Shown: positions 7,010 to 35,389 of the stretch, piece after piece
Layout of the letters: each line of letters begins with the position of its first letter
Numbering within the stretch: position 1 is the first letter of the stretch
Assembly: GCA_019057375.1 (NCBI GenBank)
Contig: DXJF01000029.1
Coordinates: forward strand, 1-35,389
Origin: Candidatus Heimdallarchaeota archaeon
GTDB lineage: Archaea > Asgardarchaeota > Heimdallarchaeia > Heimdallarchaeales > Heimdallarchaeaceae
Reading direction: 5' to 3'
DNA length: 35,389 bases
Notes under the pieces: generated by a model
What the model was told of the DNA's origin: nothing
The model's input: the letters and a program-made list of their open reading frames with translations, nothing else
Database searches by the model: none
Made by a program: the position numbers and the translations under genes

Positions 7010-9246
7010 GATAAATCCTCCAGTTCAAGTTGAGAAGTTGCTATCTCTCTGTAAATATCATTAGTCTCAAGTAACTCTTCATGTGTACCTTTACCAGCTA
7101 TTTTTCCATCATCGATAACGATTATTTGCTCAGCATTCTTAATTGTAGAAACTCTCTGTGTTACAATTAGCAAAGTACTATCACCTGTTTGTTTCTTTAG
7201 AGCTTTACGTAAAGCAGCATCTGTCTTGAAATCTAACTGAGAAAAGCTGTCATCAAAAATATATATTGGTGGTTTTTTAACTAATGCTCGCGCAATTGAA
7301 AGCCTTTGTTTTTGACCTCCTGATACATTCATACCTGCTTGAGCAATTTCACTTTCTATTCCATCCTCTTTAGAAGATACAAATTCTGTTGCTTGAGCTA
7401 TATCAAGAGATGATTGAAGTGCTTCTTCACTTGCATCTTCATCTGCAAAGCGTAGGTTACTTTCAATCGTACCTGAGAATAAGAAACTCTTCTGAGGTAC
7501 ATATCCTATAACTTCTCTTAAATCATATTGAGTCACTTCGCGAATGTCAACACCATCAATCAAAATAGAACCTGAAGTTACCTCATAAAATCGTGGAACC
7601 AAGTTGATAACTGTTGATTTACCAGATCCTGTTGCTCCAATAAAAGCTGTAGTTTGGCCTGGTTCTGCGGTAAAATTAATATCTTGTAGCACGTTCTTCT
7701 TCGCTCCTGGATAATTAAAGGTCACATTACGGAATTCAACTGAGCCCTTAAATGGTTCAGCAAATTTCTTAGGTTCTTCTGGATCGTTGATTACTGGTTC
7801 TATTTGTAAAACTTCATTGATTCGATTACCTGCGACTACAGCTCGAGGGAGAATGATGAACATCATAGTCAGCATCAAAAATGCAAACACGATTTGCATA
7901 GAATATTGTAAGAAAGCCATCATGTCACCAACTTGCATAGCGCCATCAGCAACTCTGTGGGCTCCTACCCAGATAATGCTTATAGAAAGACCATTCATAA
8001 TAAGCATCATAAACGGCATCATGATTACCATCACTCTGATAACAAATAGACTAACAGCTGTTAGGTCAATATTAGCTTTATCAAATCGTTTTTCTTCATG
8101 CTTTTCCATGTTAAAAGCTCTAATAACTAGCATTCCTGTAAGATTCTCCCTAGCAACAAGGTTAAGACGGTCTGTTAATTTTTGAATTATCTTAAATTTC
8201 GGAAGAGCAACTACAAATACAATCATAATCAGACCTACTAGTGCGAAAACCGCTACACCGATTAACCACCACATCGATCTGCTTTTTTGTAAAGCTCGAA
8301 CAATTCCCCCGATACCAAGTATTGGGGCATAGAAGACCATTCGAACTATCATATACATGGCCATCTGTACCTGAGTGATGTCATTAGTTGAACGAGTTAT
8401 CAGAGATGCAGTTGAAAAACTGTCAAATTCAACACTTGAGAAGCTTTCAACCTTCTTGAATAACTTACTTCGAATGTCACGTGCCATTCCTGCAGATGTC
8501 CTCGAAGCTAAATAGCTTACAGCAATAGTACATATAACTGCTAGTAAGGTCATCAAAAGCATCAGTCCACCAGATTTCAAAATGTACATATTTTGCAGTT
8601 TATCGATATTCATTCCTAGCATTTCATATTCAAATCTTACTCCAATTACTGCGAATTGAGCAAGCATAGTTTCCCCAATTTCAGTAAAGCTTTGTGTGAT
8701 TGATTCAACTATGAATGTAATGTTCGCTAGAGGTAACATACTCAACATATCGAAGAAAACTGGTGCTGGTGGGATAGTACTGATATTGTAACCCAATTGT
8801 TCCCAAATCTCTGTAGCATTTTCTGGATTAGCTAATGCTTGTTCGAAGGTGAAAACCACAACAAGTGGTTTAACAATTATATCCTCCAATTCATTTAGTT
8901 TCGTTTTCTTAATGTCGTTTAACACATAAACAGATTCATTTGCAAGAACTGGATATATTTCCGCATAGCTATCATAATCTGTAGAATTTTCATCTATTAA
9001 TGTATATGAATCGTTCACTATTGTTTGGTTTTCAGGTGCCATAAAAATGAAGAATCTCTCCAATTCACTCTTACGTATAGCAATAGGTACCGGATTTTCA
9101 ATTCCTCCTTGTTGTATTCCTGTATCAACAATATCTGAAAGATAATCAGGTAGTGCTAGTTCTAAATTAGCTTGCGCATAAAGAAGCCCTATAGATGCTA
9201 GTATCAGTAACAAGTAAGGTTTTGAGTATTTTAATAATCGGAACAT
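7006..9246 (-). CDS. Type IV ABC exporter subunit (TMD+NBD), degenerate half, with a large extracellular insertion
   Basis: GATGSGKST and VSGGQKQR are present. Walker B is degenerate (IFDDSFS) and Gln replaces the switch His (TQRV). ATG 9246 is preceded by AGGAGA, and the gene overlaps its partner by 4 nt. Confidence 0.95.
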   Translation of the reverse strand: MFRLLKYSKPYLLLILASIGLLYAQANLELALPDYLSDIVDTGIQQGGIENPVPIAIRKSELERFFIFMAPENQTIVNDSYTLIDENSTDYDSYAEIYPVLANESVYVLNDIKKTKLNELEDIIVKPLVVVFTFEQALANPENATEIWEQLGYNISTIPPAPVFFDMLSMLPLANITFIVESITQSFTEIGETMLAQFAVIGVRFEYEMLGMNIDKLQNMYILKSGGLMLLMTLLAVICTIAVSYLASRTSAGMARDIRSKLFKKVESFSSVEFDSFSTASLITRSTNDITQVQMAMYMIVRMVFYAPILGIGGIVRALQKSRSMWWLIGVAVFALVGLIMIVFVVALPKFKIIQKLTDRLNLVARENLTGMLVIRAFNMEKHEEKRFDKANIDLTAVSLFVIRVMVIMMPFMMLIMNGLSISIIWVGAHRVADGAMQVGDMMAFLQYSMQIVFAFLMLTMMFIILPRAVVAGNRINEVLQIEPVINDPEEPKKFAEPFKGSVEFRNVTFNYPGAKKNVLQDINFTAEPGQTTAFIGATGSGKSTVINLVPRFYEVTSGSILIDGVDIREVTQYDLREVIGYVPQKSFLFSGTIESNLRFADEDASEEALQSSLDIAQATEFVSSKEDGIESEIAQAGMNVSGGQKQRLSIARALVKKPPIYIFDDSFSQLDFKTDAALRKALKKQTGDSTLLIVTQRVSTIKNAEQIIVIDDGKIAGKGTHEELLETNDIYREIATSQLELEDLS

Positions 9247-9336
9247 TAAGTAATCTCCTATGAGAGAATGTAAATTCAACTAACTCGATTGAATATATTT
9301 GTATATTTAATTATTCTGATATTGTGAAATTTCGAT

Positions 9337-10512
9337 TTAACAATGTTTTAACGGAGTTAGTACTTCCCCTGGTATCCTTCCTTTCAACGGTTCCATTTCT
9401 TTACATTCAGTGATTGTTATTTCTTCATCAAAGATGAATTTTCCAACTCTTTTCACTTCTTCCAACACTTGTTTTTTAATTGAAACCTCTGGCTTTTCTA
9501 GAAAAAATATCTTAATAGTTGATTTTTTACTACTAACAAAATCCCATATTCCTATAACTCTCCCATTAAGAAGGATTGCTGAGGTAGCATTTCCAGATTT
9601 ATCAAACAGATAACTGTAATGATCTTCTTTGACATACCTTTCTCTATCTTTATGTCCCATTAAATATGGATCTAAATCAGAAAGAAGAGTAACAACACTT
9701 TTTTCAGTTTTACTAATTGTTTGAAGTTTTTTCAAATCTTCAGATAGAATCAGGTACTCTTTGTCGATTCCTTTGATTTGAATTTTCTCAATTTGACCTT
9801 CTAATTCCTGAAGTATCCTTCTTGTTTGAGTTTTATTGAACCCAGTCCACCACACAATATCTGTTTCTGTAGCTGGACCTAGACATTCGAAATACTTTCT
9901 AACCAAGAATTTCATACTTTCTTCTTCATTGATTCCTTCAAAGCTCATTTCTGGGAAATATTCTTTGAAGAGGGAGTATGTGTGTCTCTTATCTCTCCAA
10001 CTCTTTACTGGCTTAGTTCGTATCAAGTCTAGTTGATCACACATCAAAGTAATGAAATGAGTAGTGTACTCTTTAGAACTAATTTCTTTTTTTATATCAG
10101 CTGTTGATAAAACCTTACCAGTCAAAATTCTTCTTATTGCATTTGCAGCTTTCTCATATACATCAACTGTAACTCCAAGATTCTTTAGATAATCTTCATG
10201 ACGTTTTGAATATTGTTTCTTTGTTGCTATAAATAGACGTGGAATCAGTTCTGTAGGTTGAATAAAGATTGTTTTTCTCATACATCTGATTTTTCCCAAA
10301 TTCTTCTTTTCATAGATTTCTTTTTCCAAATCTTCTTTCCTGAAATCTATAGCTCTGAAGAAAGTAGAAAGATAGGTAGTTGTCTGACTTGTAGCATGAA
10401 GTCCTCCAATATCATATACTATTTTCGAAATATCTTCAATACGTGATTCAGGAACCAAATGTTGTTTGGTTAGAATAAAGTAATTGATTTCTGAAGCTGT
10501 GAATTCATCCAT
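9337..10512 (-). CDS. HTH_42 / AlkZ-like winged-helix DNA glycosylase family protein
   Basis: GGLHATSQTTTYLS at the catalytic-motif position, RCMRKTIF, LGPATETDIVWWTG, LLSDLDPYLMGHKDR and LLNGRVIGIW. Confidence 0.85.
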   Translation of the reverse strand: MDEFTASEINYFILTKQHLVPESRIEDISKIVYDIGGLHATSQTTTYLSTFFRAIDFRKEDLEKEIYEKKNLGKIRCMRKTIFIQPTELIPRLFIATKKQYSKRHEDYLKNLGVTVDVYEKAANAIRRILTGKVLSTADIKKEISSKEYTTHFITLMCDQLDLIRTKPVKSWRDKRHTYSLFKEYFPEMSFEGINEEESMKFLVRKYFECLGPATETDIVWWTGFNKTQTRRILQELEGQIEKIQIKGIDKEYLILSEDLKKLQTISKTEKSVVTLLSDLDPYLMGHKDRERYVKEDHYSYLFDKSGNATSAILLNGRVIGIWDFVSSKKSTIKIFFLEKPEVSIKKQVLEEVKRVGKFIFDEEITITECKEMEPLKGRIPGEVLTPLKHC

Positions 10513-10631
10513 AAAGATTCATTCAATTTCAACCTTTTTTATTTTTCTGATGACAATTCAGATTTATATATTTAAAAAAAATGTAGTCAATAAGAAGCCA
10601 ATTAAGCTTAACATACTTAGTAGTGAGATAC

Positions 10632-11339
10632 ATGAAAGAAGAAGAATTCAGGAAATTTCTCAAAAGAAAGGGTAAAAAAGCAGATGTAATTGATAGAAAT
10701 GTTACATCAGTAACTAGATTTATTGAGTTTCTAAAGAAAGAAAGAGGAAAAAACCTAGATTCTACGATAAAAGATGACATTGATTCTTATGTAAATGAGA
10801 TAGAGAAAAAACAAAAAAAATCAGCTAAAGGAGCTTTGTATGTTCTGATGAACTACTACAAATTCACTGAAGATAGTGAAATGTTATCATATGTAGCAAA
10901 ACTGAGAGAAGAAAGAACTAAGAAATCACGAAGAGTTTTTCCAATTAAGGAGTTCCACAAGGTCAATTCTGAATATGTTCAAAAACTCTCTAGTGTTGGT
11001 ATAAAAAACGTTGAACAAATGCTTGAAGCTGGCAAAACCAAACAACAACGAAAGAAACTTTCAGAGGAATTAAACATACCTGAAGAAGCAATTTTAGAAC
11101 TTGTAGAACTCTCAGATATTACTCGAATAGGATATGTTAAAACAAAACTAGCTCGTCTTTATCATAGCGCTGGAATTGACTCTCCTACTAAACTTGCTCA
11201 ATTTGAAGTTAGCGAACTCTATGAGTTTTTTAAGAAATATGTGAAAGAATCAGGTTGGGATGGTATGGTTCCCAATCCTAAAGATCTAGAATACAATATT
11301 CGCAATGCTAAGAAACTTAAAGAAATTGTAGAAAAATGA
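10632..11339 (+). CDS. DUF4332-domain protein with an N-terminal integrase SAM-like helical domain
   Basis: C-terminal KLSSVGIKNVEQML...LSDITRIGYV...AGIDSPTKLA (HhH-like DUF4332). N-terminal FRKFL...F.EFL...IDSYV...LMNYYKF. ATG at 10632. Confidence 0.7.
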   Translation: MKEEEFRKFLKRKGKKADVIDRNVTSVTRFIEFLKKERGKNLDSTIKDDIDSYVNEIEKKQKKSAKGALYVLMNYYKFTEDSEMLSYVAKLREERTKKSRRVFPIKEFHKVNSEYVQKLSSVGIKNVEQMLEAGKTKQQRKKLSEELNIPEEAILELVELSDITRIGYVKTKLARLYHSAGIDSPTKLAQFEVSELYEFFKKYVKESGWDGMVPNPKDLEYNIRNAKKLKEIVEK

Positions 11340-11365
11340 ACCCTCTAGTGATGCAGAAAAAGCTA

Positions 11366-11560
11366 TTACTTCTTTCTATTAGCATGACAAACTTTGTGAA
11401 CTATCCACCATTTATCGTCTAGCTTGAGTAAGTTGAAGTAGTCAATGAATTGAGCTCTATCGCATTCTAATCTTATCTTAGCTAATCAAACGTTTCCTGT
11501 AATATCCACATATAGAATCTCTGTTTCCCATTTAATATTTTCATCATAATCTTTAGAATC
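11366..11560 (-). pseudogene. Remnant of an NTF2-like/SnoaL (Lumazine_bd_2-type) gene
   Basis: Reading through TGA at 11486-11488 gives KWETEILYVDITGNV*LAKIRLECDRAQFIDYFNLLKLDDKWWIVHKVCHANRKK*, matching the family C-terminus. No credible start was found; the 5' boundary is approximate. Confidence 0.65.
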
Positions 11561-16999: not shown

Positions 17000-18360
17000 T
17001 ATTACGGGAGCTTTTATAGGGAATTCAAGGGAGAAGGGTGATGACAAAAGTACTGAGAGTGGAATGTATAGAACTCCCCTATCACCAAGCTCTAAGCACA
17101 CTTTGTCATCAAGTGAAAAACCTCTATAATCGAGCGAATTATCTAGTAAAGCAATCGTTGAGTAAGAAGAGCAAGTTGCTAGTGTACTATGACCTCAACA
17201 CCTTACTTAAGGAAGAAGCGTGTTACAAAACCCTTCCCGCACATACTGCACAACATACCCTCAAGCTCCTTTGCAGAAATTGGAAAGGATATTTTCGTGC
17301 ACTGAAGGAATGGAAAAAGAATCCTGCATTGTTCTTCGCTATGCCTCAACATCCTAACTACAAAGCGAAAGATGGGGAAGTTGTAGCTATCTTCACCAAC
17401 CAACAAGCGAGGATAATAAATGGCTGGCTAGTCCTTCCTAAGAAAGTAGGCTTCTATTACAAAACTCGACTGACAGCGCGTACCACGTTGAAAGAAGTAA
17501 GAATTGTCCCACGACGAGTGGGTTACACTCTCGAACTAGTGTATGAGAAAGTCTTACCTAAACCACGAAAACGGTTTACCAGGAAAGGTGCGATCGATTT
17601 AGGATCTATCAACTTTGTAGCCTTTGTGGATAACCTCGGCAATCAACCGATTGTTATCAAGGATCACGGGAAAGGGATAAGAAGTATTATCCAATATTAT
17701 TTGAAACAACAAACACAATTAAGATTACAATATGTCCAGCAGCAAAAACAGCAATTAAAAACAAGGAACAAACTCAGCTATGGTCCAGCCTATTATCATC
17801 TTCGTGAGAAGTGGCGCAAAAAACTCAAAGATGCTATCCACAAACTCACAAGATATTTAGTAGACTTGTGGGTTGAACGGAACTTACATGAAGTCATTAT
17901 CGGTTATAATGAGAAATGGAAACAGAATGTCCATTTCTGGAAAAAGATCACCCAGATGTTCGTAGCTATTCCCTTCATGAAAATTATTCACCAGTTACAG
18001 TATAAAGCGGCTGAACATGGGATAAAGGTTGAGCTTATACCCGAAAAGTATACTTCTAAGTGTAGCTTTCTGGATAATGAGTTTCCCAGGTCTAGGGAGA
18101 AGTATGCTGGACGTAGAATTACTCGAGGGTTGTTTAAATCTGCACAAGGTCATCTGATCAATGCTGATGTCAATGCTGCATACAATATTTTAATCAAAAG
18201 CGATCCGAAAGCATTGCCTAAACGGCGTGCGAACGGGGTAGGAGGATACGTGATGTATCCACGTAGAGTGAGTGTTGACCCATAATGACCTCTCCAAAAG
18301 ACATTCGACTATGCTTGGTTAATATGCCAAGATGACATAAACTCATCATTTTGAGAAAGA
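17000..18360 (+). mobile_element. Non-autonomous tnpB-only (IS1341-like) element; ends not defined
   Basis: tnpB has no adjacent tnpA or serine recombinase, and a hairpin-rich segment sits at and after the tnpB 3' end. Boundaries are approximate. Confidence 0.55.
17038..18285 (+). CDS. tnpB: TnpB RNA-guided endonuclease (IS200/IS605-IS607 superfamily), rearranged-RuvC subtype
   Basis: N-terminal KNLYNRANY and RNWKGYF. RuvC-I AIDLG, VIIGYNEKWKQ, PEKYTSKCSFLD, RITRGLF and RuvC-III NADVNAAYNI. Confidence 0.93.
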   Translation: MMTKVLRVECIELPYHQALSTLCHQVKNLYNRANYLVKQSLSKKSKLLVYYDLNTLLKEEACYKTLPAHTAQHTLKLLCRNWKGYFRALKEWKKNPALFFAMPQHPNYKAKDGEVVAIFTNQQARIINGWLVLPKKVGFYYKTRLTARTTLKEVRIVPRRVGYTLELVYEKVLPKPRKRFTRKGAIDLGSINFVAFVDNLGNQPIVIKDHGKGIRSIIQYYLKQQTQLRLQYVQQQKQQLKTRNKLSYGPAYYHLREKWRKKLKDAIHKLTRYLVDLWVERNLHEVIIGYNEKWKQNVHFWKKITQMFVAIPFMKIIHQLQYKAAEHGIKVELIPEKYTSKCSFLDNEFPRSREKYAGRRITRGLFKSAQGHLINADVNAAYNILIKSDPKALPKRRANGVGGYVMYPRRVSVDP

Positions 18361-23718: not shown

Positions 23719-25074
23719 TTATTCAGGAATGAAAGGTCTCAATGATTCCTCATTGATTTGCTCTTTGCATATTGGACAAGTTCCTTTAACTTTGATCCAT
23801 TCTAATATGTGATTTTTATGAAAAATGTGGTTACAAGGTTTTGTTAGAACTATTTTTTCTCCATCTACAATGATATTCTTACATATTTCACAGTAAGGAG
23901 CTTTCTTCCCACAATTTAAACAAACAATAGGTCCTTCATCTTCTACTTCTTGTAACTGAGCGTTGCAGTATATACAGAGTATTTTTTCTGGCTTTTCTAC
24001 TACTTTCCTTGAGAATTCTTCTGTTGTTATGGGAACTTCAACATCATAACGAATGAAGATTTCTTGATCTTCGATGAGCTCTCCTACTTCAGGAGTGTTT
24101 TTTAGAATCAATGACAAATAAGTTTTGAATATTGATGAAGGGAGACCAGTTTGTTCCAATAAGCGCTTTAGAGATATTTGAACTCCTGGATTAAGTGTTG
24201 TAATTGCGGTTCTAACCTTATCAAAGTTTTCTAGATATACTATCCTGTCTTTTAGTTCAGTAATTTGTTTACCAATGTCTTCTTCTGTTTTCTTTATAGT
24301 CTCAAAAATTGATTTTGCACTATTGGGTTCTAATCTCTCTATTTGATCAAGATTTGATGTAATTTCTATCAATTCTTTTAGGAAATTCCTGAATTCCATT
24401 CTTGCAGATTTTAATGCTTCCAAAGTTTGGCTTTGAGAGGTTTTTTTAACTAGATTATTGATTTTTTCATTTATTTGAATTACCTTCTCTTCCTCTGGTT
24501 TTAACATTGATAGAACCTTTGCCACCCATTTCTCTTTGTCACTTATACTATAAGATTCCACTTTTTCTCTTTCTTCTACTGAACTAAATCCTAATTTCTT
24601 AGTTTCAAGCAATTCCTTTTGTTCTTCTCTTTTTACTAAAATTAGAAAAACTAAACTAGCTAAAGTGAAGAGAAAGATGGTCAAAAATCCGAGATGTAAA
24701 AAGATTTGTGATTTATTCATTAATTCCAGAAGAAATAGACCTCGAATATAGAATGCTATTGAAGCTAAACCTGTTAATATCGGTGTTAGGGGGATGAACA
24801 ATGCAAATATGGGGATGACTAAAGCTAATGTTCGTTCTTTACTCCTGAAAGCTTTGACAATCCCATAGATTGTTAAAATGATAAAACCAGCAAAGTAAAT
24901 ACTTGAAGGAATCACCCACCACGAGAAAATAGCTGCTCCTGACAATGCATCATCTAAATCCTGTTCAAAATTGAATATGAAATTGAGTAAATATCCTACC
25001 ATTACAAAGAAAAATATATTCTCAATTGCTGTGAGTAGAGTAAAAATATGTTTTGTTTTCATTTCTAAACTCAT
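23719..25074 (-). CDS. Membrane-anchored RING-finger protein (putative E3 ligase): about 4 TM, coiled coil, wHTH-like, Zn ribbon, RING
   Basis: C-terminal CEIC-x13-CNHIFHKNH-x10-CPIC and upstream CIYC/CLNC. The likely start is ATG 25074; the 5' extension of the tracked ORF does not look like protein. Confidence 0.85.
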   Translation of the reverse strand: MSLEMKTKHIFTLLTAIENIFFFVMVGYLLNFIFNFEQDLDDALSGAAIFSWWVIPSSIYFAGFIILTIYGIVKAFRSKERTLALVIPIFALFIPLTPILTGLASIAFYIRGLFLLELMNKSQIFLHLGFLTIFLFTLASLVFLILVKREEQKELLETKKLGFSSVEEREKVESYSISDKEKWVAKVLSMLKPEEEKVIQINEKINNLVKKTSQSQTLEALKSARMEFRNFLKELIEITSNLDQIERLEPNSAKSIFETIKKTEEDIGKQITELKDRIVYLENFDKVRTAITTLNPGVQISLKRLLEQTGLPSSIFKTYLSLILKNTPEVGELIEDQEIFIRYDVEVPITTEEFSRKVVEKPEKILCIYCNAQLQEVEDEGPIVCLNCGKKAPYCEICKNIIVDGEKIVLTKPCNHIFHKNHILEWIKVKGTCPICKEQINEESLRPFIPE

Positions 25075-25447
25075 CAAATACAATTGAGGTATGAATATTA
25101 AGCTTTTTCCAAATTTACCACCTTTATAAATCAAATTTCTGATAATAGTTTTCCTACACCTATCTTGTTCCACAACCCACTGAAAGCAAATAAAAAAATA
25201 AATGGTGAACATAGTGAGTACAAACACACATACAAGAGTAAAAGAAACAGTCCAGAGATATCTCTCCTCTTTTGAGAGATTTCAAGAAGAACTTTTATCC
25301 TTAAAGGATTTAAGATTAAGAATCAATCAACCATATTTTCTTACAAAACACTTCATTTGTTCAAATCCTTTATATGTTTGTGCTATCATGCTAGTTGTTT
25401 ACTTCTTGAAAGAACCTACATATTATTAGCAGTGTTGCTAGAATGTA

Positions 25448-26926
25448 CTAAATGATTTCCAAATCTTTGTTTCTATAGAGTATTTGAGTAATTTTTCGTA
25501 ATTTTGTGTCTTTTTTTGAAATTAGTCTTTCTTGAATTTTAGTTCCGTTTTCTGAAGATAATAAATCTTTTCTAGTAATACACTTTGAATCTTTATCATC
25601 AAAAAAGAATATGTTCTCATAATCAATATTAGAGATTCTATCATTGATTTGATTCAATAAACTTTGATTATTTACGATTTTTGAATTACTCTGAATTATC
25701 TCTTGTTTATAGAATGGAATATCATATAAATTCAGTAATCCATACTTACAAGATAGAAAGACTACATCTAGCAAGAACAACAATTTTTCTTGCTGTTTAT
25801 ATGATAACAACTTCTTAAAAATCTGATTCTTTGAAATATCGGACATAAAAGCAAATGAAAGGTTACAGTTTATTTCATCAAATTCTGGTAGGATAAGAAG
25901 ATATTTTTTATAAAAAGAGAAAATCGAACTATTTAGATAGGAGCGGATCTGCTTGAATCTTAGTTTTCGTTTTTCTTTAATATCCAAATTAAAGATTGTT
26001 TCATAAATTTTTATTAGTGACAAGTAATTATTCAATTCTCTTTTCTTTCCACTTATTTTTCTCAATTTTATAATTTCCTTTTCGATTTTATTAAGTTGGT
26101 TTAAAAGAGTTGAATTATCATCTTTGGAAATATCTAAATGTTTGTTTTTGTCTATTTCAGCTATTGTGATTAACCTATCATGTTTCAATGAATTTAATTT
26201 ACTTGCAGATTTACTATCCATTTCATTTAATTTTTGAAATAACTTATTCAGAAAAGTTTGAGGAACCTGATAGTTAAACACCCAACCCTTATAATCTCCT
26301 CCATATATTTTATTCAACTGAAAAAACTTGTGTCTTTTTGGATGATAGCACCCCAGTAAAAATAGCCAATCATTAGGATATTTTCTTCTAATAGATTCGA
26401 CAACTTCCTTTAAGAAACCTTCATTTTCTACCTTTACATATCTTGCACTATTAATGTTTTTCTTTAGTAATCCTCCAATAGCTATGTAAGTATATCCAAT
26501 ATCTTTTAATCTTTGATAACAACTTAAGTAATCATCTAAATTAGAACCTTGAGCTACACCTACTAACTTAAAATTATATGTAGATTGATTGTAAACTGAA
26601 ATTGCTTCTTTAGCACTCTCTATTGTTGCTGTACTATTCTTAATTGTATCAATTATTATACCATAAGAAGCATGCATATTTTCATAAATAGTAAATAGAT
26701 CAGTATAATTTTCTGGTATACAACCATCTTTAGTAAAAACTCCTGAATCACACATTTTAACAATATTTGGTGCTTTAAAGTTTCTAAACTCTTGTTGAAA
26801 ATTTTTAGAAGTATTTGCATGACCCATTAATCCAATTTTGAATGGAAGTTTGTCTATCTCACAGTACTTCAGTATCTCTAACGACATTTGTCTATCTACC
26901 ACGAAGAACGGAATCATTCTAATCAA
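25448..26926 (-). CDS. Divergent TGT-fold (queuine/archaeosine tRNA-ribosyltransferase-like, DpdA-like) enzyme with a C-terminal DUF6884-like segment
   Basis: TGT motifs in order: D60-SG, IID93, VAQ126G, AIGG152L, FLLG192, GGD211. No CxCxxC Zn site and no PUA domain. C-terminal FLSCKYGLL. Start is TTG 26926 (overlapping the upstream stop) or ATG 26917. Confidence 0.8.
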   Translation of the reverse strand: MIRMIPFFVVDRQMSLEILKYCEIDKLPFKIGLMGHANTSKNFQQEFRNFKAPNIVKMCDSGVFTKDGCIPENYTDLFTIYENMHASYGIIIDTIKNSTATIESAKEAISVYNQSTYNFKLVGVAQGSNLDDYLSCYQRLKDIGYTYIAIGGLLKKNINSARYVKVENEGFLKEVVESIRRKYPNDWLFLLGCYHPKRHKFFQLNKIYGGDYKGWVFNYQVPQTFLNKLFQKLNEMDSKSASKLNSLKHDRLITIAEIDKNKHLDISKDDNSTLLNQLNKIEKEIIKLRKISGKKRELNNYLSLIKIYETIFNLDIKEKRKLRFKQIRSYLNSSIFSFYKKYLLILPEFDEINCNLSFAFMSDISKNQIFKKLLSYKQQEKLLFLLDVVFLSCKYGLLNLYDIPFYKQEIIQSNSKIVNNQSLLNQINDRISNIDYENIFFFDDKDSKCITRKDLLSSENGTKIQERLISKKDTKLRKITQILYRNKDLEII

Positions 26927-27801
26927 AACCTCAAGAAATTCTCGAAAAAATCATTTTCTATTATTTTTGCTTCTTGCCAGAATACATTAAAGAAATCCCT
27001 CCAGAACAAAGCATTTTCACCTAATTGAATGATTCCTGCTTCACCGTTAGTCAAAAAGGATGCTTCTCTAATTTCTCCACTTCCAACATAGGAATATTTA
27101 TTATCAACAACAATGATTTTCTGGTGAATTCCTTCATAGTGAAGTGAATGAGTAGAAGAGTGGTTGGTAATTCTGGACGAATATTCTCTAATCTGGATTC
27201 TAGTTTCCGGATTTGTTTTATTATCATTGTAAATACTAATTAGTTTTCTGAAAGCACGAATCTTTGAAATAAATGGAAATCCATCTCTTTCAATTTCTAA
27301 TATTCCTCTCGTTATTATTTTAATTGAAACTCCTTTGGTAGCTACTACTGAAAAATCATCAATCAAATAGGATAACCCACTACTTTCAAAGAAAGGTAGT
27401 ATCAAACATACTTCTTTTTCTGCAACTCGAAGAAGTAACTTAAAAGCATCAATAAGATTAATTATGTCTACAGACACATATTTCTTTCTAAGTGAATTCA
27501 ATTCTTCAGCAAGAGATAGTGGAAAGTTAATTACTAGTTTATCATTTCCTATTACATCATTAATCATAACATCAGATTTAGGGATTGTCGATTTTATTTT
27601 ATCCAAATCATCTAAATAATATATTTTTGTATTTCCCTGAATTTTTGCACTTATTTTCTTCTGTTTGACTAAATAGTCTAAAAACAAAAGAGCATGGTTA
27701 ACTTCATCTGAATTTAATTTCTCATAAACTTCCTCTTCAGATATAATTTGATTTTGTTCTAATGTTTTAACAAGCCATTTATAAATCTGTTCTATCCTCA
27801 T
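26923..27801 (-). CDS. Single-HKD phospholipase D-family nuclease with an N-terminal wHTH-like domain (DrmC/DpdK-like)
   Basis: H226-Q-K228-IIVV-D233-NKYSYV-GSGE...NGEAG, plus LILPFF and IKIITR. Confidence 0.85.
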   Translation of the reverse strand: MRIEQIYKWLVKTLEQNQIISEEEVYEKLNSDEVNHALLFLDYLVKQKKISAKIQGNTKIYYLDDLDKIKSTIPKSDVMINDVIGNDKLVINFPLSLAEELNSLRKKYVSVDIINLIDAFKLLLRVAEKEVCLILPFFESSGLSYLIDDFSVVATKGVSIKIITRGILEIERDGFPFISKIRAFRKLISIYNDNKTNPETRIQIREYSSRITNHSSTHSLHYEGIHQKIIVVDNKYSYVGSGEIREASFLTNGEAGIIQLGENALFWRDFFNVFWQEAKIIENDFFENFLRF

Positions 27802-29624
27802 TAGCTACCACTTTCCATGTTTTCAAAGGAATATTCCATGAATGATTTTGAAAAACATCTATCTAGAAGAGAGTTGGATGGTAACCATCTTGAAATTTCA
27901 TTAGGCATGAATGGATGGCAATAGAAGTCTTCTATAAATATACAAGCAGGACAAGCACTTTTACACATTTGTCTACAGAAACTTATTTGTTTAGAGAAAT
28001 TTCTAAGCATTTTTTTCATCTCTCCTCCTTGTTTTCCATAGGTTAATTGAACAAGTCCTCCTGAGCTTACATCTTCAAGTTCGTACAAAATAATTGCACA
28101 ATCTTCTAATAGAATCTTACTTCCAAAAATCTCCATACCGATCTGATTTGTTATAGAAGAGAATAATGAATGTTCCAAAGAATGTAATAGAGGAGCTAAA
28201 CCGTTTCCCTTGTAATTATCAAGAACATCTTGAAAATTTTCTTGATTTATATACTCTATTTCTGTTGATACGATTTCTTGATAGCTTTTTGATTCTTCAT
28301 AATTATTCTGATAATTTATAAACTCCTCAATTCTTTGTTTATCAAATTTGAAAACTAGTCCTCTTCCTTTTGTGATTATCACATATGCTCTGTACTTATT
28401 TCTACCATGAACAAAAATATCTGCTAGTTTATCAACTTCAGGTATAATAATTGGATAGGAAGAAGTACCTGACTTATATCCATATATTGAGGAAATTGTT
28501 GTAATTTCAGGTATTGAAAATATATCACTAATTGAGAATAAATCCAATATCATTTTCTTGTTTAAATCTTCTAGTTCATCGGAAAGTTTCCAATAGTACA
28601 TGTCTAAGTCTTTCATTTTTTCATTCTGTTTTTCTAATTCCTCTAAATTTACAATACGATTACCTAAGAAAAGAAAACTCTTAATCAATGGGATATATAA
28701 TGAGGAAGAAGATAGAGATGGTTTCATAATGGAGGAAATGCTCTTTTCTTCATCACTGCTATAAACATGGCATACGCAATTCTTAAACAGTCTAGTTTTG
28801 TAATCACAATTTCTATCAGAACAAAACCAAAAAGAGCCAGAAATGGATTCAGTTTTAAAGAAGTGAAGGTGTCCATTATTACAATTGGGACACTCAATTA
28901 AACTTCCTCTGATATTTTCAACTTTTATTTTTGGTGGTACTAGTTCGTGTACCTCAGTACATCTAGGACAAGCAAAAACATAAGGAAACTGTTCCATCTG
29001 GTTTTTTATGAGTTTTTGATTACACTGCGGGCATGTTTTCACGTTTTTATCTGATATCTGCTTCTTGCAATTGACACAATACGAAGCACAACAAGGGCAG
29101 TTTGTGTTCTCTGTAGTTTCCGGGTCTAGTATTTCATAATGCCCACAGAAGTTACATCGAAAACTCAAGGGAAAAACTTGGGTTTTGAGTGTACTTTCAG
29201 AAGTAATCTCTTTAAGTTCAATTAATGATGGATGAATATGATAATCCTCATCTTCTAACGCAGCACTAGATTCAGTTATTGTTTCTGGTACTTCTCCAAG
29301 TAGTTCCTTTAATTGAGAATCGATTATAGAATAGTCATCAACTTCGGATTCTTCTTCAGTAGAATCTTTTTCCTTTTTTAATTGAAAGAATTCATTTTGT
29401 CTCTGTGCCAATATCTTGAAATGTTCATTTTTTTTCTTAAGTAAAGTACCAATCTCTAATGATAATGATTTCGAAATTTCAGGATTTTCGTATTCAGTTG
29501 TTTGTAATATTTTCTCAGTTCTTATTGAACATAAATCTGTAGTATTTACTGCTTTTTCAAAATACCTGTATAATACTTGCCTCTTAGATAATTGAGATAT
29601 ATTTTTCATTTTAGTTATCCTCAT
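27801..29624 (-). CDS. drmB: DrmB-like DUF1998 (MrfA-type Zn-binding) protein
   Basis: FPLSFRCNFC, EQFPYVFAC, SSSSLYIP...SFL, GRGLVF, LLHSLEHSL, AIILYE...GGLVQL, C...C.SACPAC and NSLLDR follow the DrmB layout. Confidence 0.8.
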   Translation of the reverse strand: MRITKMKNISQLSKRQVLYRYFEKAVNTTDLCSIRTEKILQTTEYENPEISKSLSLEIGTLLKKKNEHFKILAQRQNEFFQLKKEKDSTEEESEVDDYSIIDSQLKELLGEVPETITESSAALEDEDYHIHPSLIELKEITSESTLKTQVFPLSFRCNFCGHYEILDPETTENTNCPCCASYCVNCKKQISDKNVKTCPQCNQKLIKNQMEQFPYVFACPRCTEVHELVPPKIKVENIRGSLIECPNCNNGHLHFFKTESISGSFWFCSDRNCDYKTRLFKNCVCHVYSSDEEKSISSIMKPSLSSSSLYIPLIKSFLFLGNRIVNLEELEKQNEKMKDLDMYYWKLSDELEDLNKKMILDLFSISDIFSIPEITTISSIYGYKSGTSSYPIIIPEVDKLADIFVHGRNKYRAYVIITKGRGLVFKFDKQRIEEFINYQNNYEESKSYQEIVSTEIEYINQENFQDVLDNYKGNGLAPLLHSLEHSLFSSITNQIGMEIFGSKILLEDCAIILYELEDVSSGGLVQLTYGKQGGEMKKMLRNFSKQISFCRQMCKSACPACIFIEDFYCHPFMPNEISRWLPSNSLLDRCFSKSFMEYSFENMESGS

Positions 29625-32600
29625 CTACTTCATTTGCCGTTAATAGATCATCTTCCTCATAGAAAGAAAACATGTAATTTCTCTGTTTTTCCAAAACTTC
29701 ATATAGTTTCACATCAGATATACAAAGAATAACGTCTCTCTCTGTTTTCGCTCTCAAAGAGAATAAAAACTCATCCTCTTCTTTTAAAATATTTGCAATA
29801 TATTGGTTTGGACCTTTTCGAACTCTGAACAATTGAATGTATTTAATAATTCCCTTTCTGATAATCAAAGCAATTTCTCTAATAAGGTCCTTATTAGAAG
29901 AAGATTCGACCATTGCATTTAGAATATCATATTCCAAAGCTTTCTGTCTATTCGAATTAGCTCCAATATTTTTTGTGAAGGAAGGAGCAGTTAATGAGTA
30001 CTGGTTGAATCCTCTGTATGACTGTGCTGCTATTATAGCTTTCATAATATTAGGTAATAATAATCGAGTTGCAAAGGCATTACTCTGTTCAGTCGGTTTA
30101 ACATCAAAATATCCTTTCACATCACTCATAACTGAGTGAAAGTTTTCATACCAAAAAAGATCTCGTGGTATTGATGGTAATAGATGAATTACAACATGTC
30201 CAGGAAATACTCCTCTTCCTGTTCTCCCTGCTGTTTGAACAAATTCAGTCATTGTTCTAGGAACACCTAGCATAATCATGTTATTCAGATTTTCAATATC
30301 AACACCTAAAGAGATGACTAAATTTGCAAGAAGAAGTTTAATATCTCCATTTATGGCTTTTGTTAATATTTCTGATATTTGTACAGTTTTTGAGTCACCA
30401 CTAAGAAAGTCTATCAGGATTTCATATCCGAGATTCTTTCTTGACATATCAATTAGAGCTTTTCGTAAACTGTAACCATCTCTTTTTCTATATAGATATC
30501 CAAGTATAAAATCATAAGCTAGTATATCGTTTTTATTTACGTTATTGATTTTTTGTTTCAATTCCTTAGTCTCATGAAGATCAATAAAAGTATGCATAAG
30601 AGCATTTGAAACAGTAGTTCGACTAGATCTGGAAACTGGAAGAATCAGTACTGTCCTATACCTAACTTTGCTATCATTGATCTTGAAATACTTTGATCGA
30701 TTAGAATCCTTTGGAAATACTGAAATATTGCTGGAACGAGTGATTTTACTTAATAATTCTACATCATTAGCAATAGTTGCAGTTCCGGTTTCAAATGTTA
30801 AATCACTAATAAAACCATCCTTGTAGTACTTATTTCCAATAATTTTATCTGACATTATCTTTAGAGTTTTAAGAAAAACAGATAATAAAATACCAGTTAA
30901 ACCATATAGTGAATGTATTTCATCGAATACAAAATAACCAATGGGTGAGTTTTCTATCTTATCTAAATGTACGTTTTTATTACACTTATTACAAACAATA
31001 GATTCTTTATTCGGGTTCATTAGTGGAATACAAAAACCACAACTGCATCTTTGATAAGAACCACCAAAGAATCTCAAATGCCCTAATTCATAACCAGCAA
31101 CAGTTGCTTCATAAAAAAGTTTATCTGGAGTTGCGATAGTCATTAAAGGGATGTATTCTTCTGCTTCTCCTGTAAGAGCAGTTGGTCTAAACATATAATC
31201 TATGTGATGATCACAATTATCACATACACCAATCATTCGTGAATTGACCAGTTTTGCATGAACTTGGTTTCTAGATTTACATTTAGGACACAAATCATAT
31301 TGAATCATTAGTTGCCCTTCAGTGATATCTGACATCGCTCTGAATAGCGGATCATATTGCCCAATATGTAAACCACCTGTAATTTCATTGTTTTGGAGAT
31401 TCTTTCTTAGATGATAAATAAATGCAGTTAGCCGCTTGAACATGTCTTCATTTAATATTCTCGTTGGAAAAGCTAATACAGACCTTTGTTCTTTTAGTAG
31501 GGAGTGAAGAGCTGCATTAACCATAAATACTATAGTCTTTCCTGTTCCAGTTGGAGCTTTAATAATTGTTACAGATGATTTTTCATCATTTAGTAGTTTT
31601 ATTATTCTATTTTGAATAGCTTCCCACTGAAATGTGTAAAGGTTCTCAATCTGAAAACCATCTTTGGCAGATTTTAAGATATTTTTAATTATTTCAAATG
31701 TATAATCTATTTTTATTTTCTCTAAATGCTCTTTAGTTAGTAAATTCATGTTTTTTAGAAGATTTTCCTTAGATGATATTAAAAGCCCTAAATTAGGTCC
31801 AATTGAAGGTTCTTCTCTAATCATATCAAAAACTCCAAAAGGAAGAATCAATATTTTTCGTAAATCAATTGTCGATTTAGTAAGAACACAATTATATTGT
31901 TCATAGTAGAGTTGTGCATCATCTGTTCCGAGATTATTATCTCTAGAAGAAGCTCGAAGCTGAGATTTTAGTACTTCAGCATGCTGTTGAGGAGGTATGA
32001 TAAAATTTGAATTTACTACTGAAATATCCAAAAAAGGAAGAATCAGAATTGAGGTTCTCCATTTTAATTCATCGGGAAATCTATGAGGTTTAACATCAAT
32101 ATCAGTTTCATTAACTAAAGAGATTTCTATTCTGATAGAATTATCAACATTCTTTTTCTTTATGATTCTTAATACAAGCTTAACATTAGCTTGACCTGAA
32201 ATCAAATCGACAAAAGCTAGATCATCTAAGGATTTGATTGTCTCTACAGTTTTTTCAATAGATATCGTTTCTACTATCTCACCTTCTTCTTCCTTTGCGA
32301 GTTCGTCGATTTTTATTTCATAATCAAATTCATAATTATCTGGTGATACACTTTTAATCATAAATTTACCATTGTCTAGCAATTGATAATTTTCACCATT
32401 AATTTCTAAATTACTGAATTCATCAGGTAAGTCTATTTGGGGATTACTGAGATATCGTTTCTGTGTGGATGTTTTAGTTTTCCTATATTCTCCGTATCTA
32501 AGATACTTCACAATACCAAATCCCCCTTTTATTTTGAGAATCACATCTTGATTTTTTTCAATGTGAAAATTACACATTACATTTGGAGGATATCTCCAAG

Positions 32601-32814
32601 CTTGGTTTTTCTTAAAAATATTTAAATCCCGAGGTACAAGTATATTTGAATCAGATGAATACCTCAATAATTCATTATTTCTATAAGTAACATTTGAAAT
32701 CTGTTTTGTAGATATTTCATTCAACAATTCTTTATCATCAGTTTGAGGTACTAAGTGTTGCATTAATTCTTTAATTCGATCCTCTAAACTGGAAGTTATT
32801 TTTGTTATTTTCAT
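29611..32814 (-). CDS. drmA: DrmA-like superfamily 2 helicase
   Basis: YTFQWEAI, APTGTGKT, PTRILNEDMFKRL, GLHIG, IATPDKL, DEIH, GTAT, LANLVISLGVDI, GVPRTMTEFVQTAGRTGR and PRDLFWYENF match DrmA-type motif spacing. Confidence 0.85.
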   Translation of the reverse strand: MKITKITSSLEDRIKELMQHLVPQTDDKELLNEISTKQISNVTYRNNELLRYSSDSNILVPRDLNIFKKNQAWRYPPNVMCNFHIEKNQDVILKIKGGFGIVKYLRYGEYRKTKTSTQKRYLSNPQIDLPDEFSNLEINGENYQLLDNGKFMIKSVSPDNYEFDYEIKIDELAKEEEGEIVETISIEKTVETIKSLDDLAFVDLISGQANVKLVLRIIKKKNVDNSIRIEISLVNETDIDVKPHRFPDELKWRTSILILPFLDISVVNSNFIIPPQQHAEVLKSQLRASSRDNNLGTDDAQLYYEQYNCVLTKSTIDLRKILILPFGVFDMIREEPSIGPNLGLLISSKENLLKNMNLLTKEHLEKIKIDYTFEIIKNILKSAKDGFQIENLYTFQWEAIQNRIIKLLNDEKSSVTIIKAPTGTGKTIVFMVNAALHSLLKEQRSVLAFPTRILNEDMFKRLTAFIYHLRKNLQNNEITGGLHIGQYDPLFRAMSDITEGQLMIQYDLCPKCKSRNQVHAKLVNSRMIGVCDNCDHHIDYMFRPTALTGEAEEYIPLMTIATPDKLFYEATVAGYELGHLRFFGGSYQRCSCGFCIPLMNPNKESIVCNKCNKNVHLDKIENSPIGYFVFDEIHSLYGLTGILLSVFLKTLKIMSDKIIGNKYYKDGFISDLTFETGTATIANDVELLSKITRSSNISVFPKDSNRSKYFKINDSKVRYRTVLILPVSRSSRTTVSNALMHTFIDLHETKELKQKINNVNKNDILAYDFILGYLYRKRDGYSLRKALIDMSRKNLGYEILIDFLSGDSKTVQISEILTKAINGDIKLLLANLVISLGVDIENLNNMIMLGVPRTMTEFVQTAGRTGRGVFPGHVVIHLLPSIPRDLFWYENFHSVMSDVKGYFDVKPTEQSNAFATRLLLPNIMKAIIAAQSYRGFNQYSLTAPSFTKNIGANSNRQKALEYDILNAMVESSSNKDLIREIALIIRKGIIKYIQLFRVRKGPNQYIANILKEEDEFLFSLRAKTERDVILCISDVKLYEVLEKQRNYMFSFYEEDDLLTANEVDEDN

Positions 32815-35096
32815 TTTCCCCTCGTCTCACTTTGAGTTTCTCTTCCATACAAAGTTATTACAAATTTAACAGCTTTCACATTATATCCTTTCTCATGAGT
32901 TATTTGAGTATTATCTCTAGAGATATGGGGGGCCATATGAGCAAACATTCTCTTTAATTTTAATACAATCCTATGAGCTTTTGCTATTCTTCTTCCACTA
33001 GCCAACAAGTTTACAGTCCCATTATTCTGTAGAACATTCTTTGCGAACCAGAAATAATTCAGTTCATCTTTTTTTCCAACATAAACATCTTTTCCAGTAA
33101 AGCTTTCATCTTTATTTATCATCATATGATTGTAATAATCTAGTTTACGTACACTCATTTCTTGACCATGTTCCAATTTAACAGAAAAAATTAGATTCTG
33201 AATATCATCATAATTTTTGTATTCATTATCAGATACTATAATGTGCTCCTTTTGAAAAATAGCATATGAGTATGTTAGTGGATGAATTAGAGCAGAATTT
33301 TCATTTATTAAAGACCAAAACATATAACAACGATTATCTTTTGATGCAATTTTATGAGGAAACGAGGGATCTGCCACATTTTGGATCATCTTTTGAAAAA
33401 AATCACGACTAGTACAATTGTAAATGTAGTAGACATTGCCTTTATATTCGAAAATATATCCTTCCTCTATAAGTTGTATAACTAATTTCTCCAATTGTTC
33501 TGTAGGAACTATACATTTTAACGAAATTAGTCTCTCTTTCGAAATAAAGCCAAAGTACTTAACCAAAGCAACAATATTTGCTTTGAAGGCCTCATCTTTT
33601 TTCAAAAATCGAATAGAAAAATTGTCAACTGCATAGAAAGCTTTGTTCTTCTGCTTAGATTTCTTAAAAGCAAAGAAATCATTTCTTAAAAGCACACTTA
33701 TCCATCCTCCTGACTTTAAATCATGAAAAGTATCTATGTTGTATTTGTAAGTATGAAAATCCCATTTAATAGTAAATCTATTTCCAAAAATATCTTTAAC
33801 AATGGTTACAGGTGTAGGAGAGCTTATTTCCAAGTTACGTTCGATTCTAACAATAGCTAAAAAAAATCTACTTAATTCATAATGACCTTTCCAATTCCCC
33901 ATATCGATATTGAAAGCTTGAAGATATCCTTTTTGTGAGAGTATAAATTCGATAGAAGGAATCCCTGTTGATAACATAAATGATCTTGATATCAACTCGG
34001 GATCTCTTTCATCAAATAAAATAGTATCTCTTGTTCCAGTATTTTTCAATCTTCCTAAATATGGATAGATTCTCCATCTTTTCAAAGTAACTTTCTTCAA
34101 ACGAACTTCAAATAAATTCGTACTTCCAAATTTAATTCTCTTCGGATATATGGATGTTGGCCAATGGAGAAATAATTCTAGATCTGGTATATACAGTTTA
34201 TAATAATTTGTTTTCCAGTTATTAGTAGATGATAAAGGATTAGCTTTGTATATAATTCCTGTTATTTCTGGATCAATTTCAAATTCATCTAAATAGGACC
34301 AGTCAAAATATGAGGTTATATTATCTATTAAATAATTTAAGAAGTTTTTAGCAATAATATTCTCTTTATCTACTTGCTCAAAAAGCAGCTCCAAATCTTT
34401 TACAAATGAAGTACCTTCAATATATCTGAAATTTCTTTCATATAGTGCTAATATGAAATTTTCAATTTCTGATTCACTTTTAAGATAATAACTATATGAT
34501 TTGGAAAGAATAGAAGAAATAAGTGATGCAATTGTTTCTATACTAATTTCTGTTTCTTCCATTGAAGGTTCGGTTTCAATAAAATCATCTTTATACTCTA
34601 CCCAGATTCTTGCTGTATGAAAAATGCTGTATATTTTATGCATATCTTTTTCATTAAAACAAAGGAAATTTGTTGATTTTTCATCAGATTGAACATGAAG
34701 AGCTCTAGTTATCAAGTCTTTATATATTTGCTCAGGAAGAAAAACTTTTCGTATATCTACATAAACTATTTTTTCTTTCAGAACAGCGGGAATTTTAAAG
34801 ATACCTGGAGAATATTGATAACCATGAATGATAGCTTCATTTCTCTTTTGAGCTTTCAAATCTTCGTCTATACATATGTAATAATACTGTTGTTTACTAC
34901 TCGGAATCAATTTTCTAACTACCCAGTTATTACGAAATAATACAAAAAAGGAATCATTACTATTATCTTTCTTGACTTTCAAGAAATCCCAGGATCTTGT
35001 CTTTGGATTAAAGAATTGCCAGAAATCACCTTTTGATACGCTGAAAAGAAAATATGCTCCAAGTTTTTCTTTAAAAGCGAACTGATCTAATTTCAT
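32811..35096 (-). CDS. Large unknown protein with a C-terminal Alba domain (possible OB-fold and wHTH upstream)
   Basis: Residues ~670-755, VYVGKKDELNY...VNLLASGRRIAKA...NVKAVKFVI, align with Alba (VLIGKKPVMNY...IVIKARGRAISKA). ATGA overlap with the helicase gene; GGTGGT upstream of the ATG. Confidence 0.75.
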   Translation of the reverse strand: MKLDQFAFKEKLGAYFLFSVSKGDFWQFFNPKTRSWDFLKVKKDNSNDSFFVLFRNNWVVRKLIPSSKQQYYYICIDEDLKAQKRNEAIIHGYQYSPGIFKIPAVLKEKIVYVDIRKVFLPEQIYKDLITRALHVQSDEKSTNFLCFNEKDMHKIYSIFHTARIWVEYKDDFIETEPSMEETEISIETIASLISSILSKSYSYYLKSESEIENFILALYERNFRYIEGTSFVKDLELLFEQVDKENIIAKNFLNYLIDNITSYFDWSYLDEFEIDPEITGIIYKANPLSSTNNWKTNYYKLYIPDLELFLHWPTSIYPKRIKFGSTNLFEVRLKKVTLKRWRIYPYLGRLKNTGTRDTILFDERDPELISRSFMLSTGIPSIEFILSQKGYLQAFNIDMGNWKGHYELSRFFLAIVRIERNLEISSPTPVTIVKDIFGNRFTIKWDFHTYKYNIDTFHDLKSGGWISVLLRNDFFAFKKSKQKNKAFYAVDNFSIRFLKKDEAFKANIVALVKYFGFISKERLISLKCIVPTEQLEKLVIQLIEEGYIFEYKGNVYYIYNCTSRDFFQKMIQNVADPSFPHKIASKDNRCYMFWSLINENSALIHPLTYSYAIFQKEHIIVSDNEYKNYDDIQNLIFSVKLEHGQEMSVRKLDYYNHMMINKDESFTGKDVYVGKKDELNYFWFAKNVLQNNGTVNLLASGRRIAKAHRIVLKLKRMFAHMAPHISRDNTQITHEKGYNVKAVKFVITLYGRETQSETRGK

Positions 35097-35305: not shown

Positions 35306-35389
35306 TTAGCATGTAGTATTTATACGTCCTTTGTATGTAGGTATGGTTAGCTCCTTGTTTTCATTTCTTAATTTAGTTGCCTTTTCTTC
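35306..35389 (-). CDS. Possible 3' end of an upstream gene (window edge)
   Basis: The only minus frame that stays open from the edge reads EEKATKLRNENKELTIPTYKGRINTTC*. Too short to identify. Confidence 0.3.
   Translation of the reverse strand, partial: EEKATKLRNENKELTIPTYKGRINTTC

Follow-up and report, generated by a model that had tools for sequence, protein, structure and literature searches.

A five-gene operon on the minus strand of contig DXJF01000029.1 (C124), from a Candidatus Heimdallarchaeota archaeon, was analysed by comparison with related loci. The window referred to throughout is this whole contig (35,389 nucleotides), which belongs to a 3.47-Mb genome that is 89% complete. The operon (positions 25448-35096) encodes an Alba-bearing protein (g1), the DISARM-type proteins DrmA, DrmB and DrmC (g2, g3 and g4) and a protein, g5, related to the tRNA-guanine transglycosylase (TGT) paralogue DpdA of Dpd systems. 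We consider it probable that these genes form a methylase-less DISARM/Dpd hybrid restriction-modification operon, in which self DNA is marked with 7-cyano-7-deazaguanine (preQ0). The strongest argument that g5 writes such a mark is the occupancy of its gene slot: related loci carry there g5, DpdA together with its supply genes, or a methylase.

The gene slot beside the g1-DrmABC core

The five genes were found together in seven lineages (the window, loci L009, L037, L039/L050, L040 and L049, and the P0132 locus), in the gene order g1-drmA-drmB-drmC-g5 or g5-g1-drmA-drmB-drmC. The window locus was also assembled as L007 and L008 and was counted as one lineage. As the layout recurs in seven separate lineages, it is not a product of chance. 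A first-pass annotation of this DNA, made from the letters alone, had suggested looking for the same synteny in other archaea, and it was indeed present, with the TGT-type gene adjoining DrmABC. Locus scans with a narrow g1 alignment added three loci only, and a broad g1 alignment was too diverse for scanning.

The slot beside g1-DrmABC is swappable. In L010 the core lacks g5 and has a bona fide DpdA as its neighbour (375 bits for the NCBIfam model, cut-off 200); the same core also adjoins a QueC/QueE fusion, FolE2, QueD and Q_salvage. In L042 (2878-12406) and L051 (4077-14447), DrmABC and a distant g1-like accessory protein, which matches no DrmE model, are accompanied by a C5 DNA methylase and an HhH-GPD glycosylase. 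In L041 the core was found without g5 within the part of the contig that was available. Further genes in L010 (1-20891) encode an Ogg-type glycosylase, a UvrD helicase and a PD-(D/E)xK protein, and a 542-aa protein follows DrmC in this locus.

Genes for the supply of preQ0 were also observed next to g5 itself. In L037, which is Candidatus Nitrosopumilus salarius BD31, QueC (3e-67) and QueD (8e-23) are encoded immediately upstream of g5 and co-oriented with it, and a Q_salvage gene is nearby. In L009, the gene directly downstream of g5 encodes a queuosine-precursor transporter (TIGR00697, 163 bits, cut-off 51); import of preQ0 has been shown for this transporter family (PMC5372724). These que links, together with the slot swaps and the DpdA-like fold and residues of g5 presented below, support by comparison the earlier proposal that the self mark is made by base exchange with a 7-deazaguanine. 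The g5 gene of L037 is split into two overlapping open reading frames (ORFs) of 95 and 365 aa (10095-11397), by a frameshift or a sequencing error; apart from this split, the queC-queD-g5-g1-DrmABC block is intact.

The first-pass annotation had reported the operon to be without a methyltransferase, and had pointed to the sequence beyond position 35389 as a place where a methylase, dpdB or dpdC might lie. A six-frame search of C124 detected no C5, N4/N6 or N6 DNA methylase (PF00145, PF01555, PF02384); other contigs of the genome did match. The sibling assembly L008, from the same organism, reaches 10 kb beyond position 35389, and no methylase, dpdB or dpdC is annotated in those 10 kb. The genes present there encode small unknown proteins, a sugar nucleotidyltransferase, TnpB, a tubulin-family protein and pyruvate kinase. 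The absence of a methyltransferase from the contig and from these 10 kb was thus confirmed. The DpdB model NF041060 had no match in the 89%-complete genome, and none in the control genomes either. No ParB_N gene was listed beside g5 in the Pfam-annotated loci.

The g5 protein family and its partners

The g5 gene (25448-26926, minus strand) encodes a protein of 492 aa, or 489 aa in the Joint Genome Institute (JGI) gene call. An AlphaFold2 model built on 51 homologues had a mean predicted local distance difference test score (pLDDT) of 84. Residues 1-222 (26261-26926, minus strand) form a TGT/DpdA-like TIM-barrel domain, with a pLDDT above 90 across most of its length; this domain is the predicted DNA-guanine transglycosylase. 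The closest solved structure in Foldseek was 7ui4, the DNA preQ0 insertase DpdA (E 2.2e-09); bacterial tRNA TGTs ranked after it (about 1e-06), and the matches to DpdA and to many TGTs had a probability of 1.00. In profile searches, g5 matched the PADLOC DpdA model at 8.9e-12 and the NCBIfam DpdA model at 1.1e-10, and the Pfam TGT model at only 0.15. Pentatricopeptide matches obtained in a single-sequence search against solved structures were rejected as spurious; profile and fold searches were needed for this protein.

Ten residues are invariant in the 51 homologues of g5: D60, S61, F64, D93, Q126, G127, G151, G152, L153 and D211. In a profile alignment, D60, F64, D93 and Q126 correspond to Asp95, Phe99, Asp130 and His181 of DpdA. 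In that enzyme Asp95 is the general acid/base, Phe99 stacks on the base, and Asp130 and His181 read the Watson-Crick edge; its two catalytic aspartates could not be mutated without loss of activity (PMC10164549). With a fold closest to DpdA, conserved residues, and swaps with DpdA or a methylase, g5 bears out the initial view that a TGT paralogue occupies the modification slot. It is predicted to be a single-chain DNA-guanine transglycosylase that forms its own branch within the TGT superfamily, with DpdA as the nearest member.

The barrel is followed by a long helical linker (residues about 223-339, with helices at 222-339 in the model; 25910-26260, minus strand), which is variable across the family and absent in L009, L039 and Archaeoglobus. 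The C-terminal part of g5 (25517-25909, minus strand) is a degenerate DUF6884/YaaA-like domain related to DpdC, as recognised from the Pfam matches of its homologues, whose C-terminal halves match PF21818 (DUF6884) and PF03883 (YaaA/DUF328). The L009 homologue (P0098) matches both the PADLOC DpdA and the PADLOC DpdC model (4.8e-06). DpdC is itself a DUF328 protein (PMC12839542), and DUF6884 is reported to be a DNA-binding domain that resembles YaaA, carries CxxxK and LSAxxG motifs and probably flips bases (PMC11701544). Since the homologues carry DUF6884/DUF328 and the L009 copy matches both DpdA and DpdC, the g5 family is, at the level of sequence, a DpdA-like and DpdC-like fusion.

The window copy departs from this pattern. 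Its residues E348, F349 and I352 replace C-S-x-x-K, and the YDGP and G-x-I-G motifs are gone; LSCKYG is kept. The CxxxK, YDGP and GxIG motifs are all kept in the alignable DrmABC-linked copies (L009, L037, L039 and L049). A Pfam scan of the window g5 gave no significant match, and its C-terminal domain had no match even at E<=10. The first-pass statement that no DpdC is visible therefore needs correction: the family has a DpdC-like C-terminal half, of which the window copy has lost the CxxxK and YDGP motifs.

DrmABC is not the commonest partner of g5. A cassette that ends with g5 was found in 21 of the 31 loci; it also encodes a HerA ATPase (PADLOC 2e-68) and a partner of roughly 600 aa, and in one bacterial representative of this partner a NurA domain was recognised. 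These cassettes comprise three or four genes (L002-L004 and L016-L038, for example L002:5421-10577) and were found in numerous phyla of both archaea and bacteria; those of cyanobacteria and Chloroflexota begin with a small stand-alone DUF6884-like gene. In a quick maximum-likelihood tree of g5, DrmABC-linked and HerA-linked copies were interspersed, the well-supported branches force at least four partner switches, and the window g5 was sister to a HerA-linked copy. Partner switching of this kind, as read from the sequences, is as expected of a self-contained modification module.

A third type of partner was observed in Archaeoglobus (L005/L006/L018:9983-18096), where g5 precedes a split DruE-like helicase-DUF1998-PLD protein (PLD, phospholipase D family). 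The split parts are a 311-aa protein and a 1387-aa helicase-C/DUF1998/PLD fusion, and they are followed by a 484-aa protein without a family match. The neighbourhood of this locus also contains a GmrSD gene and a HEPN/MNT toxin-antitoxin pair. Further g5 partners were present at L026:4279-11540 and L027:3053-11425. A haloarchaeal metagenome-assembled genome (MAG) had a split g5 beside SIR2 (ThsA-like) and CARF proteins, and in a Methanoregula MAG g5 was beside restriction-endonuclease-like genes.

Predicted mechanism and competing explanations

We infer from these comparisons the substrate of g5 (DNA), the inserted base (preQ0), independence from DpdB, the manner in which the mark is read, and a defence phenotype. 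In this mechanism, g5 would use the double displacement of TGTs to replace guanine in host DNA with preQ0, with D60 as acid/base and D211 as nucleophile, and its DUF6884 domain would bind DNA. The preQ0 would be taken from the host's own supply, already made for the archaeosine of tRNA. Because the host genome has adjacent queD and queC genes on contig C102 and an archaeosine TGT, preQ0 should be available. Relatives with intact DpdC-like motifs may convert the nitrile into an amide, as DpdC does. The mark in the window host would probably remain preQ0 and not become the amide (7-amido-7-deazaguanine, ADG), given that the DpdC-like domain has lost its conserved motifs. The restriction half would consist of g1, DrmA, DrmB and DrmC and would destroy unmarked DNA. 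Once g1, DrmA and DrmB had loaded onto an incoming molecule, DrmC would cleave it, whereas DNA bearing the mark would escape.

Several points weigh against this reading. In the DISARM systems studied, methylation controls restriction only in part. The queC and queD genes belong to the housekeeping set of archaea, and some of their linkage to g5 could therefore be coincidental. The score of g5 against the NCBIfam DpdA model NF041059 was 40.9 bits, with a cut-off of 200 bits, which places it outside the equivalog. The correspondence of D211 with the DpdA nucleophile Asp256 is one we infer from residue order and invariance, without an alignment. A CxCxxC...H zinc motif like that of tRNA TGTs was not noticed in the g5 sequence or among the conserved columns of its family, although no systematic search for it was made. 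The degenerate DpdC-like domain of the window g5 could also mean decay. Lastly, Salmonella DpdA requires the ATPase DpdB (PMC10164549), and no DpdB was found here in a genome that is 89% complete, with a model that matched no control genome either.

A different role for g5 in defence would be that of an effector or sensor acting on invading DNA, in which glycosylase activity or base exchange (excision of 7-deazaguanine, or the production of abasic sites) would be followed by processing of the sites by the PLD nuclease and the helicase. Defence glycosylases against 7-deazaguanine-modified phage DNA exist (bioRxiv 10.1101/2025.10.29.685425), DUF6884 is predicted to bind lesions as well as flip bases (PMC11701544), the covalent intermediate of TGTs could be hydrolysed, and glycosylase genes lie near related cores (the HhH-GPD gene in L042/L051 and the Ogg gene in L010). 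However, queC-queD and a precursor transporter beside g5 suit a consumer of preQ0 and not a mere base remover, and g5 swaps with writers, namely canonical DpdA with its synthesis cluster or a methylase. We regard this explanation as unlikely. The remaining two appear less likely still. In one, g1-DrmABC would be a modification-independent, DISARM-like defence, and g5 would be a separate cassette or have a role away from DNA, such as 7-deazaguanine metabolism of tRNA or of the nucleotide pool, or regulation. This would account for g5 being commoner with NurA-HerA than with DrmABC and for the g5-less core in the available part of L041, and DISARM DrmAB is summarised in PMC11529989 as recognising DNA ends largely regardless of sequence. 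A separate cassette is nevertheless difficult to reconcile with start and stop codons that overlap or nearly abut throughout the operon, and with a g5 that adjoins the core in seven lineages and two gene orders. As for a role away from DNA, neither the Pfam scan nor the structural matches of the model included a PUA or other tRNA-recognition domain, the fusion to a DNA-binding DUF6884 domain and the nearest match to a DNA-acting enzyme point elsewhere, and the host already has an archaeosine TGT for its tRNA. That the locus is a decaying or non-functional remnant in the window genome is equally improbable. The g5 C-terminal domain has lost its CxxxK, YDGP and GxIG motifs and the operon lies at a contig end near TnpB elements, but the five frames are intact and identical or nearly so in two other assemblies, none of the catalytic motifs (helicase, PLD and TGT) is disrupted, and a sister protein in L002 has a similar partial loss, which suggests a subfamily trait that is tolerated.

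Beyond the hybrid restriction-modification operon favoured here, a broader proposal is put forward more tentatively, as one that may or may not hold. The g5 family, with its DpdA-like and DpdC-like fusion, might be a DpdB-independent, single-polypeptide writer of 7-deazaguanine in DNA. As a portable self-marking module it might have been recruited repeatedly in evolution by no fewer than three restriction machines unrelated to one another (g1-DrmABC, NurA-HerA and the DruE-like helicase-PLD), taking the role that methyltransferases have elsewhere, and 7-deazaguanine marks might be widespread in archaeal chromosomes, apparently including an Asgard lineage. If these readings are true, self/non-self discrimination of the DISARM type can use a base-exchange mark instead of methylation, and 7-deazaguanine can be written into chromosomal DNA by a compact one-protein enzyme without DpdB. 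Many archaea would then join the few bacteria and phages, and the predicted islands of haloarchaea, that make up the present range of 7-deazaguanine DNA epigenetics. The family would also provide a small, portable DNA-modifying enzyme for study, and its natural module swapping would show which half of a system reads the mark.

The remaining genes, related systems and genomic setting

The five minus-strand ORFs are all co-oriented and their neighbours overlap or abut, as the first-pass annotation had described, and every junction was found at the positions it gave. The first gene, g1 (32811-35096; 761 aa), overlaps g2 (29611-32814; 1067 aa) by ATGA at 32811-32814. The g3 gene (27801-29624; 607 aa) starts at 29624, giving a 14-nt overlap with g2; alternatively, it starts at an ATG five codons later, just past the g2 stop (JGI call, 602 aa). 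It is joined to g4 (26923-27801; 292 aa) by TAATG at 27799-27803, and g4 to g5 by TTGA at 26923-26926, with an alternative g5 ATG three codons later in the shorter JGI call. A scan for sigma-70 promoters and terminators performed no better than on shuffled sequences, and the sigma-70 model is uninformative for an archaeon.

The assignment of g2, g3 and g4 as DrmA, DrmB and a PLD protein (DrmC) in the earlier annotation was upheld by PADLOC hidden Markov model (HMM) matches and intact motifs. The g2 protein is a DrmA-type DEAD/DEAH helicase (PDLC02573, 1.3e-77, residues 328-968) with Pfam DEAD and Helicase_C matches and with intact Walker A (PTGTGKT at 423) and DEIH (at 631) motifs; besides DrmA, it had weak helicase-motif matches to DpdJ and DpdF (2.7e-06, PADLOC). 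The DUF1998-type zinc-cluster protein g3 matched DrmB at 1.6e-24 (residues 175-591) and has seven CxxC pairs and a Cys cluster near the C-terminus (550-569); its homologue in the P0132 locus had a faint MZB/DUF1998 Pfam match. The g4 protein, a single-HKD phospholipase-D-family nuclease, matched DrmC (1e-25) and Pfam PLDc_2 (8.8e-09), and has the HxK(x)4D motif as HQKIIVVD at residue 226.

The g1 protein is a multi-domain nucleic-acid-binding protein whose family is rare: a search of 1.84 billion proteins yielded 47 representatives at E<=1e-3. Its AlphaFold2 model had a mean pLDDT of 58, and only the individual domains were usable; no domain was assigned within residues 14-350. Residues 667-749 (32850-33098, minus strand; local pLDDT about 80) form an Alba-like domain with the beta-alpha-beta-alpha-beta-beta fold, as seen in a structure comparison with Mja10b (1nh9; VIA-align Z 12.5, root-mean-square deviation 1.6 A over 78 of 80 residues, 24% identity); the Pfam Alba match was weak (2e-4, 21.5 bits against a 25-bit cut-off). 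OB-fold-like (about 405-500) and winged-helix-like (about 499-559) domains were also recognised (33420-33884, minus strand). Their VIA-align Z scores of about 8-9, to SSB/PriB OB folds and to the winged helices of Rpa2/cullin respectively, are middling and derive from a model of moderate confidence. The g1 protein and eight relatives had zero DrmD or DrmE matches in PADLOC-DB at E<=1, and no match to a Dpd HMM. The first-pass annotation had placed this Alba fusion in the DrmD/DrmE slot; this holds for its position, which is that of DrmE in class 2 DISARM, but g1 matches no DrmD or DrmE model. A feature search of the ESM Atlas with g1 returned nothing usable.

Class 2 DISARM has the order drmE-drmA-drmB-drmC-drmMII (Ofir et al. 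2018, as summarised in PMC11529989). The operon shares with it DrmA, DrmB and DrmC recognised by DISARM HMMs and the order of a large accessory protein, DrmA-B-C and a modification gene last, and the same core occurs with a C5 methylase in the related L042 and L051. It differs in that there is no methyltransferase, the last gene being the TGT/DpdA-like and DUF6884 fusion, and in that g1, with its OB, winged-helix and Alba domains, matches no DrmE/DrmD model. Without a methylase or a match to DrmD or DrmE, the operon falls outside DISARM as defined. With Dpd (dpdA-K of Salmonella enterica serovar Montevideo, PMC10164549) it shares the predicted writing of preQ0/ADG into DNA by a TGT paralogue, a DpdC-related domain (degenerate in the window copy), DpdJ-related helicase and DUF1998 proteins, and a DpdK-like PLD nuclease. 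DpdJ also has an Alba-like domain (Bell et al. 2025), whereas the Alba domain of the operon is on a separate protein, g1. The operon has five genes in contrast to eleven in Dpd, with no DpdB ATPase detected and no DpdD-I, and of the restriction genes dpdD-K only the weak DpdJ/DpdF matches on DrmA were found. Its transglycosylase carries a DpdC-like domain as a fusion and falls well short of the DpdA equivalog cut-off, and its helicase and DUF1998 parts are split, as in DISARM. Because no DpdB was detected, DpdD-K are lacking and the transglycosylase falls outside the DpdA equivalog, the operon is not a Dpd system as defined either.

In the literature searched, the system closest to the operon is BRIGADE, a prediction reported from haloarchaea only. 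Its defining parts are ARMADA-like or Dpd-like YprA helicases of the fused type, a cluster for deazaguanine biosynthesis, DpdG and DpdHI/BrxC (bioRxiv 10.1101/2025.09.15.676423). Both are archaeal and YprA-family-based, and both combine a PLD nuclease with 7-deazaguanine chemistry that is predicted only. The operon differs in its split DrmA/DrmB, whose best matches are the DISARM models, in g1 and in the g5 fusion, it has no biosynthetic (que) genes within itself or the window, and it is found in other archaeal groups; it is therefore outside BRIGADE as defined by Bell et al. 2025. The text of the supplements of that study makes no mention of TGT, DpdA, DUF6884 or DrmE. The NurA-HerA and TGT/DUF6884 cassette shares the g5-type modification enzyme, but its partner is the NurA-HerA nuclease-translocase pair and not g1-DrmABC. 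The literature searched contained no description of DrmABC with a TGT-like enzyme, of the g5 fusion, or of the NurA-HerA and TGT/DUF6884 cassette.

The guanine-cytosine (GC) content of the operon block was 27-31%, compared with 33-38% in the remainder of the contig, and a search of 24 further genomes of the genus recovered no homologue of g5. With this low GC content and absence from congeneric genomes, the operon fits an acquired island. TnpB genes (OrfB_IS605 and Cas12f1-like TNB) flank the low-GC block, at 17038-18285 (plus strand) of the window and at L008:5945-7198, and may mark the borders of the island. Directly downstream of the operon, a gene at 23719-25227 (minus strand) encodes a 502-aa protein with a C-terminal RING-H2 domain (1.1e-08) and a weak DUF5847 match. 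This RING-finger gene was rejected as a member of the system, as no assemblies other than those of this organism have it beside the operon. Elsewhere in the window, an AlkZ-like DNA glycosylase (9337-10512, minus strand; 1.6e-46) is encoded beside two ABC exporter genes (5075-9279).

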